DNA of 64,000 bases, taken from NCBI GenBank assembly GCA_036258195.1, contig DATAED010000076.1, positions 9,981 through 73,980 of the forward strand, read 5' to 3'. Both the position numbers and the translations under genes were made by a program. The DNA comes from Ktedonobacterales bacterium (lineage in GTDB: Bacteria > Chloroflexota > Ktedonobacteria > Ktedonobacterales > JADMIN01). The notes below the pieces were generated by a model, which saw nothing but the letters and a program-made list of their open reading frames with translations, was not told the origin of the DNA and did no database searches. Positions 16,306 to 21,537 of this stretch are shown piece after piece (position 1 is the stretch's first letter; each line of letters begins with the position of its first letter).

Positions 16306-17652
16306 CTAGCTCAGCGCGGCGTCGCTGGCTCCGGCGATCAGCGTGGCAGGCGAGCCGCCCTGAGCGATGACCAGGTTGGCTGTCGTGCGCGTCACACCGG
16401 AGGCGTCGGTGGTGGTCGCCGTGACATCGGTCGCCAGCGCCGACGAATCAGTCAGCCAGATGGGCGCATAGGGCGAGGTCACAGCGATGCCGCTGGACTG
16501 GCCGCTCAGATACAGTTTGTCGCCCTGATACGCCACGGCGCTGTTCGGTCCCAGCGCGATCTGCGGATGCGCTGAGAGCGGCTGCGACGTGACCCCGCCG
16601 ATGTGCGTAGAATCGCAGCCCAGATTATAGATGGTGGTTAGGCAGAGCGTGCGCGCGGCGACGCTGGTCTGCGTGTCTACTTTGCCAATCTGCTCATAGG
16701 CCAGATTATTGCCGCTCACCGTCCACGCGCCCGTCTCGAACTGGCCATTGGGGTCGGCATAGACATTGCCAAGCGAGAGCAACTGTGACCCATATAACCC
16801 CTGATTGCCGTTGAGGACGCTGGCGATGTTCTCGTCGCGCGTGATGGGATCGAGACCGAAGGTGCTGGCGACGTTATCGAGGCTGAGCGAGTTCAGCGAC
16901 GCCGTGCCGACGGCTCCGGTGGCGCTCGACTTCGCGATGGTCATGCAGGTGTAGTAGAGTGTCGTCCCGACAACCTCCACATCTCCATACGAGCGAGTCG
17001 GCCCGCAGTTGTAATCGCGAGTATCGTTGGCAGTCATGCGGAGTTGCCAGGTGCGCCAGCCATTCGGATCGCTCACGTCGTAGGCCGAGATGCCCGAGCC
17101 ACCGCCCGCGATCAGCCAGTCGTCATTGAGCCAGTCGTAGGTGTGTCCATAGACGCTTCCGGTGACCTCAGTATTGTAGACCAGGCAGTTCTCCCCGGAT
17201 GATGACAGGCACGAGGAGACGTTGACGTAGTAGATCTGGCCCGCGTCCCTGATCAGTTGGTCAGTGGAGAGATTCTGCACCAGCGCGAAGGCCAGCGACT
17301 TGCCGCTCGGCGACCACACCAGCGGCCCCCATTCGATGGTCGCGCCTGCCGAGAGTGTCAGCCGCGTCACCTGCATCAGACCCAGCACCCCCTTGACATG
17401 CGCCCAGACCTGATTGTCATAGACGAAGGCATAGGTGTGGTCTGGCCCCGTGGAGGCAAGCCTGGGCGGCGGCGCGGGATTGTCCGCCGTCGAGCCTTGC
17501 AGCCCGAGTGTCACATTGATCCCGCTCCCGCTGCCAGAGGCGCTGCATCCCGCCAGCGCCAGCAGCGCCAGCAGCGCCAGCGCCATCGCCTGAACCAGGG
17601 CTGCGAGCGGCCCCCGCCCGAACGATCGTCGCCAGTGCTTCTGGCTCCTCAT
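16306..17652 (-). CDS. Lipoprotein with a TolB/PD40-like beta-propeller-type domain
   Basis: I moved the start to the ATG at 17652: MRSQKHWRRSFGRGPLAALVQAMALALLALLALAGC (lipobox LAGC). WSPSGKSLAF is a PD40-like repeat signature. Its ATG overlaps the upstream gene's TGA (ATGA at 17649-17652). Confidence 0.6.
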   Translation of the reverse strand: MRSQKHWRRSFGRGPLAALVQAMALALLALLALAGCSASGSGSGINVTLGLQGSTADNPAPPPRLASTGPDHTYAFVYDNQVWAHVKGVLGLMQVTRLTLSAGATIEWGPLVWSPSGKSLAFALVQNLSTDQLIRDAGQIYYVNVSSCLSSSGENCLVYNTEVTGSVYGHTYDWLNDDWLIAGGGSGISAYDVSDPNGWRTWQLRMTANDTRDYNCGPTRSYGDVEVVGTTLYYTCMTIAKSSATGAVGTASLNSLSLDNVASTFGLDPITRDENIASVLNGNQGLYGSQLLSLGNVYADPNGQFETGAWTVSGNNLAYEQIGKVDTQTSVAARTLCLTTIYNLGCDSTHIGGVTSQPLSAHPQIALGPNSAVAYQGDKLYLSGQSSGIAVTSPYAPIWLTDSSALATDVTATTTDASGVTRTTANLVIAQGGSPATLIAGASDAALS

Positions 17653-19376
17653 GCAACTCTCCTCAACATCGCAGACAGCGCGCGCCCGGCTGGCATTCGC
17701 ATCGCCGCAGCGCCCGCAGCGCCTGACGCGCCCTTCGTGGCGGGACGCATACACAGCGTCGCCATGCCCTGATCGTCCTCGGCCTGGCAGCGCCAGCCAG
17801 CCAGCGCGAGCGCCTGTTTCAGCGGCGCGTCCGATTGAAGCAGCGCCCACTGGACGTGATAGTGGGCGAGCAGCTTATCCCAGCCCGGCGCGACATCCGT
17901 GATTGTGATGTAATCGGCCAGGTACTGCCGACTATAGACATCTGATCGGCTGTCGATGAATACATGATACTCCGGCAGCGCCTCATCCAGATAGCCGCCC
18001 CACTCATACGGGTTGTAGCCGCGTCCGGCGGGTAGCCCATCCGCACGCAGCCGCTGCGCCGCCTCCACCGGAAAGGCGTGCGCGTCCCACTCGGCATGCA
18101 GGATGGGCTTAGCCTGCCCCGGCACGCGCCCGCCGTTCAGCACGAGCAGGGCCAGAAGCGCCAGCGCCAGCGCTGGCCACACGCCGCGTCCCACCAGCCG
18201 CTCCATCTGCGCCGCACGCTGCGAGGTGGCGCCGAGTCTGGCCCAGACGCGCCGAAGACGACGTACCGCTGCTATACGCCAGTCGGGCGCCAGTTGTGGC
18301 GTATCGGATTCGCCGCTCGCCTCAGCGATGGGCGCGGGCAAGGCATCTACCAGAAAGGGCAGGCAGACCAGCGGCCACAGCGGCACGAAGCGCACATAGA
18401 GAAAGCCCAGCGTCGTCCACAGCGCGCAGATCGCCAGCGCCAGCGGCTCGATGCGCTGCCCGCGCCGCGCCGCCAGCAGCCACAGCCCCACCAGCAGCCC
18501 TACCAGCGCCAGATAGGTCCACAGCGCCGCCAGATGGAAGTCTGGCGACTGGTACTCCTGCGTGTAGCGCGCGATCAGCGGATTGAACGTGAATGTGAGG
18601 ATGTGTCGCCAGTAGCCGAGTCCCCACGGCGTCAGCAGCGTCGCCAGCAATGAGCCTGCCAGCGTCACGCCCAGCCAGAGCGGGCTGGCCACGCGACGCG
18701 CAGGTGGCGTCAGCGTGGCCAGCGCCAACGCGACGCCCAGCAGCGCGATTCCCGCGAGCCAGCCCGCATGGAAGTTGGCCCACAGCGCCGCCGCCGCTGG
18801 AAAGAGCCACAGCCGCCAGCGCTGGCCCGTACGCCAGTAGCGGTACAGCCACTCGGCCCACCACAGCGTGAAGAGCAGCGAGAAGACCTGCGCCCGCGCT
18901 GTCCACGCCATCGCCACCAGCGGCGCGCCCAGCAGCGTCAGCGCCACCGCTGGCAGCGGCGAGGCGCCGTGCCGCCGCAGAGTCAGATAGAGGCCCAGCA
19001 GGGTCGCGGCCATCAGCAGCGAGGCGACCGAGACGACGCCATTCAGCCCTCCGATGGCATAGCCCAGCGCATAGACCACCTGCGAGAGCCATTCCCACTG
19101 CACCGCTGGCTGCCCCAGCATGCCGCTGAGAAACGGCTCTGTGCGCGGCAGCCCGTGCTGCAGGGTCAGCGAGCCAAGCGCGATATTCCAGCCGACATCG
19201 CCGTCCACCCCCAGGATGCGCCCCTGCAAGCCCAGCAGCCCGACGAAGAGCGCGCAAACGAACAGGACGTCACCTAGCGACGGCAGCGCCCATGCCACCA
19301 TCCGCTCGACGCGCGTCAACTGCGGCGCCTCGGCTGGCGTCGCAGGCGCTGGCGTCTCGACCGCCCGCTGGCTCAT
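17649..19376 (-). CDS. Polytopic membrane protein, GT-C-type glycosyltransferase-like
   Basis: The product is about 575 aa with 10 or more hydrophobic helices, an early loop motif VDGDVGWNIALG (acidic DxD-like, as in GT-C enzymes) and a ~170-aa C-terminal soluble domain. The start is the ATG at 19376, after GGAGATGGAG. Confidence 0.5.
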   Translation of the reverse strand: MSQRAVETPAPATPAEAPQLTRVERMVAWALPSLGDVLFVCALFVGLLGLQGRILGVDGDVGWNIALGSLTLQHGLPRTEPFLSGMLGQPAVQWEWLSQVVYALGYAIGGLNGVVSVASLLMAATLLGLYLTLRRHGASPLPAVALTLLGAPLVAMAWTARAQVFSLLFTLWWAEWLYRYWRTGQRWRLWLFPAAAALWANFHAGWLAGIALLGVALALATLTPPARRVASPLWLGVTLAGSLLATLLTPWGLGYWRHILTFTFNPLIARYTQEYQSPDFHLAALWTYLALVGLLVGLWLLAARRGQRIEPLALAICALWTTLGFLYVRFVPLWPLVCLPFLVDALPAPIAEASGESDTPQLAPDWRIAAVRRLRRVWARLGATSQRAAQMERLVGRGVWPALALALLALLVLNGGRVPGQAKPILHAEWDAHAFPVEAAQRLRADGLPAGRGYNPYEWGGYLDEALPEYHVFIDSRSDVYSRQYLADYITITDVAPGWDKLLAHYHVQWALLQSDAPLKQALALAGWRCQAEDDQGMATLCMRPATKGASGAAGAAAMRMPAGRALSAMLRRVA

Positions 19377-19641
19377 GCTCGCTCCATCTCCACGATAGGT
19401 ACCCCCGCTCACCCTCATCCAGCGCGCGTTTTGGCGTTTATCTGTAACAAAGAGGACGCCGCGCACTCTATAGTATGACGGTTGAACCTCCCAATTGTCG
19501 GGGTAGTGTGCGCAAATGTCGCCGGGCGCCGCAGAGTGGCATGCGCAGCGACCCGCGCGGCATAATGCAGACAAGGTGGAAGCGCGTGGCCTGGCGCGGG
19601 CATCCGGCAAGCCAGCATCCGTAAAGGAGAGCAATCATCCC

Positions 19642-20262: not shown

Positions 20263-20355
20263 CGGATCATGCCGTCTACACAGCATGACAATTGGCCAGC
20301 GTATCGGAATGGATACGCTGGCCAACGTGTTTGTGGCGTTCTGTCTCGATCACAT

Positions 20356-21108
20356 CTAGCTGGCGCGCCGCATCCGCTGGTAGTCGGAGCTGAGCTGCGT
20401 GATGAGCTTGCGGGCCTGGTCATAGCTGACGATGCCCTCTGGCTCAGGCCGCTTCAGCGCCTCGCACAGCTTGCGGATGCTGACGAGCTGCTGCTCGGTG
20501 GCCGCTGGCTCATCGCCGCGCGTCTCACCGCGTGTCTCGCTAGCGGCGCGCTCTGGCGCCTCGGCCACTGGCTCTTGCAGCGGCGCCTCGCGGATGACGC
20601 TCTGGCGGCGCGGCGCCACCGAGGCAGCCGCAGCGGGAGCCGCTGGAGCAGCCACCCGACGAGCCGCCGCTGGTCGCCGCTCGACGGGCGCATCCACCAC
20701 GCGGGAGCCTTCATCCATCTCTGGGGCGAAGGCCGTGCCATAGCCCAGACCCAGCAGCGCGCGACCGAGCGACTTCGTACTGGCCTTCTCGATGTAGTCG
20801 GCGAAGTCGCGCGCCGACTCCGAGCCATACATGACACTCTGATTGCCCAGCACGTCTCGTGCGACGGTCTTGAAGTGCGCCCATCCCGCCTCGCGGTCGA
20901 GCTCCACCAGCTCGGTCTGCACCGCATAGGGGCCGGTCGCCAGTCCGGCGGCGATCAGCGCGCGCTGGTCGCGGATGAACCATAGCAGTCGCGACTGCAC
21001 ATTGAGGTAGTCGCGTCCCTTCAAGCTGATGAGCTGATCTTTAGGATCGAAATCCGGCGCGATCATCCAGTTGGTTGGAAACGGCGCCTTCTGGCTCGTC
21101 TGTTCCAC
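20356..21108 (-). CDS. Rad52/Sak-like single-strand annealing protein candidate with a low-complexity linker and a small C-terminal helical domain
   Basis: GTG start at 21108, 8 nt after GGAGGA. The N-terminal ~130 aa contains ISLKGRDYLNVQSRLLWFIRDQ and EKASTKSLGRALLGLGYG, which resemble (from memory) the beta-hairpin/helix core of bacterial and phage Rad52-family annealases (KAxTDALKRA..FG). This is not verified by search. Confidence 0.45.
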   Translation of the reverse strand: MEQTSQKAPFPTNWMIAPDFDPKDQLISLKGRDYLNVQSRLLWFIRDQRALIAAGLATGPYAVQTELVELDREAGWAHFKTVARDVLGNQSVMYGSESARDFADYIEKASTKSLGRALLGLGYGTAFAPEMDEGSRVVDAPVERRPAAARRVAAPAAPAAAASVAPRRQSVIREAPLQEPVAEAPERAASETRGETRGDEPAATEQQLVSIRKLCEALKRPEPEGIVSYDQARKLITQLSSDYQRMRRAS

Positions 21109-21240
21109 GATCTCATTCCTCCAGGGGGCCTGTCTCCAGGCGTCTTGGTGAGTGGATTGATGGCGACGTATGACGCCCCTTCACTCGCCATAACATTCTG
21201 TTTGCAGTTGTCGCCGCCGGTAATGCGCAGACAAATTGTG

Positions 21241-21260
21241 GAACATATGTTTCATGTCAA
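21241..21260 (-). promoter_or_regulatory. Perfect -35 hexamer overlapped by a LexA (Cheo-type) box candidate, upstream of the Rad52-like gene
   Basis: The minus strand reads TTGACA-TG-AAACATATGTTC-CACAATTTG. The 12-mer matches GAAC-N4-GTTC at 11 of 12 positions with an ATAT centre and fills the promoter spacer. The -10 is weak (CACAAT/CAATTT). The site is about 135 nt upstream of the GTG start. Confidence 0.45.
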
Positions 21261-21537
21261 GCGTAGCATACGCTAAGCACTTTGGCAAGCCTCGCGCGGG
21301 ATGCTCCGCTGCGCCAAAATTGCGCTAAAATAGAGATACCGCGCATCCGCCCGCGAGCGGAAATGCGGCGGCGCAATGGGAGAGTAGGCGCCTCGGTCGC
21401 CCGGTGACACGGCGCGGCGCTCGCTCGTCGTACATCTGGACGCATCTGCGCTCAACTGCGGCCCTACCGCCGCGACGCGGTCATCCCACACACGCAGACC
21501 TGGCGCAAAGTGGCGCCATTCGAGGAGGAACAGGCAC

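Follow-up and report, generated by a model that had tools for sequence, protein, structure and literature searches.

Single-strand annealing proteins (SSAPs) drive phage recombination and underlie recombineering. In this report, we describe a gene whose product is, in our judgment, likely to be an SSAP of the Rad52 structural superfamily, belonging to a large and mostly phage-borne family, sharing the architecture of the lambda annealase Red-beta, and inducible by DNA damage. The gene occupies positions 20356-21108 on the minus strand of a 64,000-nucleotide stretch of DNA from a Ktedonobacterales bacterium of the Chloroflexota (assembly GCA_036258195.1, contig DATAED010000076.1, positions 9,981 to 73,980), which we refer to as the window.

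Two host-encoded proteins serve as reference points for this gene. DdrA of Deinococcus is a damage-induced member of the Rad52 family that is controlled by the radiation/desiccation regulon of that genus rather than by LexA. RecO anneals single-stranded DNA (ssDNA) that is coated by the ssDNA-binding protein SSB, and mediates the loading of RecA by way of the C-terminal tail of SSB.

The current classification of SSAPs recognizes seven families (PMC8093625), and the sequence of the protein examined herein does not fall within any of these. A sheet of three antiparallel strands is common to all SSAPs, together with a helix (α3) that lies across it, and a second helix (α2) packed on α3, and the β-hairpin and helix α1 vary among them, being missing or altered in Rad59 and Sak (Al-Fatlawi et al., PMC9870868). 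Red-beta carries a C-terminal domain (CTD) that binds both lambda Exo and the C-terminal tail of the host SSB, and that is structurally homologous to lambda Orf/NinB (Caldwell et al., PMC6393309). As described below, the Ktedonobacterales protein is predicted to combine the minimal fold of the first group with a domain resembling the second.

Gene and Domain Organization

The open reading frame (ORF) is complete and encodes 250 amino acids, with a GTG start codon at 21108, a TAG stop codon at 20356-20358, and a Shine-Dalgarno sequence (GGAGGA, 21117-21122, minus strand), evident on inspection, 8 nucleotides 5′ of the start. The peptides quoted in an initial, sequence-only reading of this DNA are all found in the translation. 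We conclude that this is a real gene rather than a chance ORF because it has at least 526 homologs, and 3044 clusters of proteins at 50% identity match its profile. A plus-strand ORF of 238 amino acids (20269-20985) overlaps most of the gene in antisense orientation, and is an artefact of the high-GC sequence because all homology support falls on the minus strand.

Alignment with 32 orthologs (62-90% identity) reveals a three-part layout, wherein residues ~10-146 are near-invariant, residues ~147-199 vary in length and composition, and residues ~200-250 are again conserved. The order predicted by AlphaFold2 (AF2) matches this layout, with residues 32-120 and 205-249 ordered and the per-residue confidence score (pLDDT) falling below 50 at residues 127-197. 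The first ordered region (20749-21015, minus strand as for all domains of the protein; pLDDT ~81-94) consists of a helix at residues 32-53, strands at 62-71, 76-84, and 90-98, and a helix at 105-120. It is followed by a conserved segment at residues 121-146 (20671-20748) and by a variable linker rich in Ala, Pro, Arg, and Glu at residues 147-199 (20512-20670), which is of low complexity and predicted to be disordered. The protein ends with a helical module at residues 200-250 (20359-20511), whose two helices, at residues 205-218 and 229-249, score pLDDT 88-96 in the full-length model and whose conserved pattern among orthologs is ATEQQxxSIRKLCxAL...LTYxQARxLITQLSxEYQRxRRAS. The low-complexity linker and the helical C-terminal module noted in the sequence-only reading are thus both borne out by ortholog conservation and by the AF2 model.

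Predicted Fold of the N-Terminal Domain

Two independent fold matches, one for each predicted domain, point to SSAPs. The AF2 model of the N-terminal domain (pLDDT ~90) has exactly the order of elements that defines the SSAP minimum, namely a helix, three strands, and a helix, so that residues 32-120 are predicted to form a minimal Rad52-type core (α2, β3-5, and α3). The model predicts no β-hairpin and only a short helix at residues 22-28 ahead of this core. These omissions do not exclude SSAP membership because Rad59 and Sak likewise lack or alter the hairpin (PMC9870868).

Structural searches with Foldseek also return annealases as the best PDB matches to the domain, although only marginally. 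In the PDB, chains of human RAD52 occupy ranks 1-5 (E 1.3e-2 to 7e-2, probability up to 0.91), followed by yeast Mgm101 (probability 0.96), and Gp77, a ring-forming “putative recombinase,” is also listed. Among the predicted viral structures of BFVD, the best matches are uncharacterized phage homologs (E 1e-6), and then proteins named ERF, Rad52/59/22, or RecT. The cyclic-nucleotide sponge Acb4 was likewise matched by Foldseek, and was rejected as a candidate given its lower rank and the absence of supporting context.

Across the whole superfamily, conservation is highest at residues 121-146, which carry the motif LGYGTAFAPEMDEGSRVVDAPVERR and in which G122, T125, D139, and P141 are invariant among 51 diverse members. 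Despite this conservation, the model of the monomer leaves the segment disordered (pLDDT 36-63). The sequence is reminiscent of FGFAGIYDKDEAERIVE, where the annealing domain of Red-beta ends, and profile-profile alignment with hhalign places it on Red-beta residues 163-182, although not significantly. We speculate that this segment is a candidate subunit interface or DNA clamp that may become ordered only in an oligomer or on DNA.

A C-Terminal Module Resembling the Red-Beta CTD

When the C-terminal module is modeled alone (AF2 pLDDT 82.5), its top six Foldseek matches in the PDB are all chains of the lambda Red-beta CTD, either in complex with lambda exonuclease (6m9k) or with the SSB C-terminal peptide (8tg7 and 8tfu). 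These matches have TM scores of 0.57-0.71, rmsd values of 2.1-2.8 Å over 61-64 columns, and probabilities of 0.75-0.99. Beyond the top six, no match exceeds a probability of 0.13, and the seventh has a probability of 0.10 and a TM score of ~0.3. On the basis of this model, the module has the fold of the Red-beta CTD. The specificity of the match is itself an argument, in that the best PDB matches to the predicted structures of both domains fall on annealases, RAD52 in one case and Red-beta in the other.

Of 150 diverse representatives of the family, 40 carry the module, as do 9 of 78 viral copies, and it is always located C-terminal to the N-domain. What the sequence-only reading had described as an extra module without a known role is therefore better regarded as a second domain that is standard for a two-domain SSAP, given that it recurs across the family, phage copies included. 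By analogy with Red-beta, the module may serve as a docking site for the SSB tail or for another partner. Profile alignment of the module with the Red-beta CTD did not reach significance, and its register changed between hhalign runs; for these reasons, we claim no residue-level equivalence to Red-beta F249 or K253. Two other identities, GemA and DUF3072, were considered for the module and rejected, since each matches only 2 of 51 members with E values of 1e-3 to 5e-3 that lie below the Pfam cut-offs.

A Large Family Found Mostly in Phages

A word-indexed search recovered at least 526 homologs; wherever a source record names them, the name is “hypothetical protein,” none has a Pfam domain, and most of the named ones come from Ktedonobacterales or other Chloroflexota. 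An exhaustive profile search yielded the 3044 clusters cited above at E ≤ 1e-3, 2098 of them at E ≤ 1e-10. The only database family that recognizes the protein is phrog_27776 (1.6e-14), whose function is unknown, and diverse relatives also match phrog_11717 and phrog_23738, which are likewise of unknown function. The family is large, mostly phage-borne, and unclassified by any protein-family database, and searches of the literature found no description of the family or of its Thermus-phage homolog.

These Thermus phages (P23-45, P74-26, G20c, and TSP4) are the only cultured phages with homologs, at ~35% identity. The gene, for example gene 23 of P23-45_stolb3 (L038:5995-6633) or its TSP4 counterpart (L039:5986-6621), lies immediately upstream of a gene for a DnaB-type helicase, and a Holliday-junction resolvase and a primase are encoded further downstream. 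Annotations read “hypothetical” or, in three P23-45 variant records, “ssDNA binding protein,” and the TSP4 record states “No HHBLITS hits.” The Thermus phage homolog is a candidate thermostable annealase.

To place the phage copies in context, we considered 145 nearest-neighbor ORFs on 74 viral contigs. Among these are genes for replication initiators (8), Mu Gam-like end-protection proteins (7), NinB/Orf mediators (6), Gp157 (4), HNH nucleases (3), SSB (2), and endonuclease VII (1), as well as DNA methyltransferases. This is the neighborhood in which SSAPs normally sit, as in the Sak-SSB-loader-RusA arrangement of ul36 or the exo-bet-gam genes of lambda. One viral member (L109:3863-4927) has a Top1-type C4 zinc ribbon fused after the N-domain (1e-13), and this ribbon was the only fusion encountered when exonuclease fusions were sought in six long viral members and three long representatives. 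A 405-amino-acid homolog in BFVD, A0A6J5S1P5, is described in that database, the sole source for this detail, as carrying a PDDEXK exonuclease VIII domain.

A Conserved LexA-Type Box Upstream of the Gene

A LexA/Cheo-type box, GAACATATGTTT, is located at 21241-21252, 133-144 nucleotides 5′ of the GTG codon. It has one mismatch to GAAC-N4-GTTC, which in Bacillus, Mycobacterium, and other bacteria of the Gram-positive type is the motif of LexA (PMC3323433). The box surfaced through a targeted pattern search together with cross-species comparison; scans of the upstream region for a sigma-70 consensus and for inverted repeats returned nothing. We compared 37 loci from metagenome-assembled genomes (MAGs) of Ktedonobacterales and Chloroflexia, and a box with no more than one mismatch is present in the window and in 35 of these loci, 57-295 nucleotides upstream of the start codon. 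By chance, ~0.09 box would be expected per 420 nucleotides (13.15 matches per 64 kb). The consensus of the box across loci is TAGAACAaATGTTCtA. It is retained in loci that lack the divergent 2-oxoacid dehydrogenase E2 gene, and thus belongs to the gene examined here.

The box either abuts a −10-like element (TATAAT, TACACT, or TGcTAnnnT) or lies 7-8 nucleotides downstream of it, and the flanking sequences cannot be aligned between loci. In the window, this element is TGcTACGCT (21260-21268, minus strand), an extended −10-like sequence 7 nucleotides upstream of the box whose TGcTAnnnT pattern is shared by the closest orthologs, and which may serve as the promoter. A TTGACA sequence at 21255-21260 overlaps this element and is not conserved (2 of 36). 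LexA regulon operators are recognized as GAAC-N4-GTTC motifs that are located at a promoter and conserved in orthologs, and this pattern is observed here. The SOS control that had been suspected from the first inspection of this DNA is therefore backed by a box conserved in nearly all orthologous loci, and we infer that LexA controls the gene.

The two loci without a box are L014 and L035 (5944-6777). The latter looks like a prophage or mobile paralog, because it is a second copy in a genome (MAG019) that also carries a syntenic copy (L010), and because it sits within a tight, same-strand array of small ORFs that are unknown or match DUF6011. Elsewhere in the window, GAAC-N4-GTTC-like sites are no more common than expected by chance. 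One of these, GAACGCCTGTTT at 2745-2756, lies 143 nucleotides upstream of an IspH/LytB gene; its GC-rich spacer and the lack of enrichment in the window indicate that it is probably a chance occurrence.

Separate from the box itself, an element of the form ..at.aCCG..tt.. is common to many orthologs (L001-L037) ~20-30 nucleotides downstream of the box (~21190-21230 in the window), with AAGA further on. These are possibly features of the 5′ untranslated region or of a second operator.

Host Locus and Synteny

The genes that flank this locus encode RNase J, two proteins of unknown function, a molybdopterin oxidoreductase, the 2-oxoacid dehydrogenase E2, and methionyl-tRNA synthetase (MetRS), and no exonuclease, SSB, integrase, or phage gene is found among the neighbors. 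Base composition, including GC content, is even across the locus. The order MetRS, E2, the divergently oriented gene examined here, and the molybdopterin oxidoreductase is widely kept across the 37 loci, down to ~55-60% protein identity. These findings agree with the proposal made at the outset that this is a stand-alone host gene and not part of a prophage module, and we conclude that it is a stable, vertically inherited chromosomal gene.

A hairpin with a 14-base-pair stem (TTGGCCAGCGTATC...GATACGCTGGCCAA, 20292-20325) is located between the convergent stop codons of the molybdopterin oxidoreductase and this gene, and is a probable bidirectional terminator. Two large ORFs of 514 and 661 amino acids, at 16306-19634 on the minus strand, are conserved and have no Pfam match, and the longer of them resembles a multi-pass membrane protein. 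In several genomes of Ktedonobacterales, both keep their synteny with this locus. At one non-syntenic locus, the homolog is followed by a convergent gene for a HerA-type helicase (DUF87, 1e-39; L031:7111-8910), a DNA-end-processing enzyme. The contig in question is labeled as part of a Proteobacteria MAG, possibly through an error in binning.

Evidence Against the Assignment and Alternative Explanations

Several results weigh against the conclusion that the protein is an annealase. First, it has no recognizable kinship to known SSAPs at the level of sequence. A Pfam search with the single protein at E ≤ 10 returned no SSAP family and only a sub-threshold match to DUF6215, NCBIfam gave no match, and PDB sequences, queried with the protein as well as two family profiles, yielded nothing relevant apart from one noise-level match. 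PF04098, the family that includes RAD52, Sak, and DdrA, does not match the protein at E ≤ 10 or any of 51 diverse relatives at E ≤ 0.01, whereas positive controls in the same test score 4.3e-27 (ul36 Sak) and 3.9e-49 (N terminus of human RAD52). Pfam likewise gave no match of the protein to PF03837 (RecT/Red-beta), no match of the N-domain, in the protein or in the 51 relatives, to Erf (PF04404), Sak3/DUF1071 (PF06378), Sak4, Gp2.5, or RecA, and none to the OB-fold SSB family (PF00436), the predicted α-β3-α fold being distinct from a five-stranded barrel. By sequence, then, the protein falls outside PF04098, PF03837, Erf, Sak3, Sak4, Gp2.5, and RecA.

Profile-profile comparison with hhalign leads to the same outcome. 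The N-domain family was compared in local, permissive, and global modes, each with 60 column-shuffle controls, and reached probabilities of only 0.3-1.9% against a Sak and RAD52 alignment, the Red-beta family, and lambda Red-beta alone. Shuffled profiles equaled the real score in 4 of 60 cases for Sak/RAD52 (real score 18.0) and in 5 of 60 for Red-beta, corresponding to an empirical p of ~0.07, which is the level of noise. The comparison with Red-beta homologs, to which the count of 5 of 60 shuffled profiles applies, gave P=0.048. The registers of these alignments look sensible, but carry no statistical weight. The helix-hairpin motif on which the sequence-only reading had been anchored fares no better: the resemblance of the α3 helix EKASTKSLGRALLGLGYG to EAVTDGLKRALRSFGNALG of RAD52 and GSMKRAAVQWGVGRYLY of Sak is seen by eye only, and hhalign against Sak puts the GR dipeptide in a different register.

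Second, all of the structural evidence derives from predicted models rather than solved structures, and the matches have limits of their own. The N-domain aligns with SSAP structures at marginal E values (~1e-2) and with rmsd values of 5.6-9.6 Å over 85-128 columns, and double-stranded RNA-binding domains (dsRBDs), which share its α-β3-α topology, are also among its matches. For the C-terminal module, Foldseek E values are 0.4-2, which are weak because the domain is tiny, and the model has two long helices compared to three in the Red-beta CTD. Third, a partner exonuclease gene is absent beside this gene, and exonucleases are rare beside the phage copies on the 74 viral contigs. Finally, a tblastn search of the window and loci with E. 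coli LexA found no match, a negative that is uninformative as to lexA in this organism.

The original identification of a Rad52/Sak-like annealase therefore holds only in part. Membership in the Rad52 structural superfamily is the best reading of the fold, and sequence-level kinship to Sak, DdrA, or Rad52 is not supported. The proposed comparison with Rad52_Rad22, Sak, and Erf profiles produced no significant match. Of the two results that were named in advance as jointly required for abandoning the idea, the lack of any profile match is observed, and an unrelated fold is not.

The missing exonuclease would fit an alternative in which the protein is a recombination mediator or a non-OB ssDNA-binding protein, which would coat ssDNA, or bind SSB by way of its Orf/Red-beta-CTD-like module, and would mainly help to load RecA or a helicase in the manner of lambda Orf/NinB, and would not itself anneal strands. 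Such a role would fit the “ssDNA binding protein” annotation of the three P23-45 variant records, the position of the gene directly upstream of a replicative helicase in Thermus phages, and the fold that the Red-beta CTD has in common with lambda Orf, an SSB-binding mediator (PMC6393309). We nevertheless consider a purely mediating function unlikely. The best fold matches of the N-domain are annealases (RAD52, Mgm101, and proteins named ERF or Rad52) and not Orf or OB-fold SSBs, and the separate NinB/Orf and SSB genes beside several phage copies argue against redundancy with either. Moreover, because it is common for one protein to combine both activities, as Rad52 and RecO do, this explanation overlaps with the annealase assignment more than it excludes it.

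The dsRBD matches raise the question of whether the N-domain acts on RNA. Loquacious, TRBP, and PACT appear among the Foldseek matches with the same topology (E 0.08-0.19), and RNase III proteins appear among those from BFVD. Every dsRBD, however, ranks below the RAD52 matches, and neither the window protein nor any of the 51 diverse members matches the Pfam dsrm family. In SCOP, the Rad52 core is grouped under the dsRBD-like fold, and cross-matches of this kind would therefore be expected for a Rad52-type domain. In addition, the C-terminal module matches an SSAP-specific domain, and all informative contexts concern DNA replication, recombination, or the SOS response, making an RNA-binding role very improbable.

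Least probable of all is that the protein is a divergent but true member of PF04098, orthologous to Deinococcus DdrA or phage Sak, a proposal that draws on the by-eye likeness of α3 and on RAD52 as the top PDB fold match, but that conflicts with the failed PF04098 searches of the protein and its 51 relatives alongside controls at 4e-27 and 4e-49, with hhalign probabilities (0.3-1.3%) equal to those of shuffled controls and the discordant register of the GR motif, and with a C-terminal module and conserved tail motif that look more like Red-beta.

Proposed Function and Implications

Returning to the annealase assignment, we consider it probable that the protein represents a new SSAP family that has been domesticated and linked to the SOS response. 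With confidence only somewhat better than even, we further propose that this is an eighth SSAP family, one that joins a minimal Rad52-type core to a Red-beta-type docking CTD, is abundant in phages, and has one lineage domesticated as a LexA-controlled gene of Ktedonobacterales.

For this annealase, we envision that residues ~18-146 form an ssDNA-binding, oligomerizing annealing domain made up of the minimal core and the invariant GYGTxFAPExDEGxRvVDxPv tail, and that a disordered linker of ~50 residues tethers the Red-beta-CTD-like module, also of ~50 residues. Upon DNA damage, cleavage of LexA would de-repress the gene. The N-domain would then oligomerize into a ring or filament and bind ssDNA in a Rad52-type groove. 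The segment GYGTAFAPEMDEGSRVVDAPVERR, which is invariant but disordered in the monomer model and recalls FGFAGIYDKDEAERIVE of Red-beta, probably becomes ordered on assembly or DNA binding. Docking of the C-terminal module on the C-terminal tail of SSB would bring the protein to ssDNA that is coated by SSB, at either resected breaks or stalled forks, where complementary strands would be annealed independently of RecA for single-strand annealing or for gap or fork repair. The protein could possibly also help to load RecA, as do Rad52 and RecO. In evolutionary terms, a copy of the phage family would have become a vertically inherited, single-gene locus in Ktedonobacterales, with a promoter that carries a LexA-type operator.

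If this proposal is correct, then some bacteria operate an SOS-inducible annealing pathway that is based on a phage-derived annealase. A host SSAP under LexA would be a bacterial counterpart to eukaryotic Rad52 and to Deinococcus DdrA, reached through recruitment of a domesticated phage annealase into the SOS regulon. Likewise, the Red-beta-type CTD would be an ancient and portable SSAP module rather than a peculiarity of lambda. Recognition of a new and large family would also assign an identity to genes that lack annotation in many phage genomes, among them those of the well-studied Thermus phages, and would offer recombineering candidates that are thermostable or compatible with Chloroflexota. 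SSB compatibility limits the transfer of SSAPs between hosts, and the Red-beta-like module would provide a testable handle on this property.

Comparison with Known Systems

Among host proteins, RecO has the cellular role that is proposed here. It is otherwise distinct, with OB, helical, and zinc domains of unrelated fold and with RecR and RecF as partners, and no similarity to RecO in sequence or fold was seen for the Ktedonobacterales protein. Lambda Orf/NinB has a three-helix core fold in common with the Red-beta CTD and binds SSB (PMC6393309), which places the C-terminal module near it by way of Red-beta. However, Orf is absent among the Foldseek matches of the module and lacks a Rad52-like domain, and NinB/Orf genes are separate neighbors of the phage copies of this family.

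The Rad52/22 group (RAD52, Mgm101, Sak, and DdrA) provides the best PDB fold matches of the N-domain, including the β-β-β-α core that follows α2, and Sak and Rad59 resemble the protein in lacking the β-hairpin (PMC9870868). In contrast, the PF04098 sequence test fails for this protein, and the fold match is loose (rmsd ~5.6-9.6 Å over 85-128 columns). Rad52-family proteins are not known to carry a Red-beta-type CTD. DdrA is the closest biological precedent.

Red-beta differs from the protein in several respects. The protein does not match PF03837, its profile-profile score does not rise above noise, the N-terminal core is ~90 residues compared to ~177 in Red-beta, and the predicted C-terminal module has two long helices where Red-beta has three. 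Furthermore, this gene is chromosomal and syntenic, carries a LexA-type box, and has no adjacent exonuclease or Gam gene. In layout, the two proteins nevertheless agree, each having an annealing domain at the N terminus that is joined flexibly to a small, helical domain at the C terminus; they also have similar motifs at the end of the annealing domain (...LGYG...DEGxRVVD here and ...FGFAG..DEAERIVE in Red-beta), and phage relatives of both are found in recombination modules. Lambda Red-beta is the closest known protein in function and architecture, and Rad52, Mgm101, and Sak are closest in the fold of the N-terminal domain.

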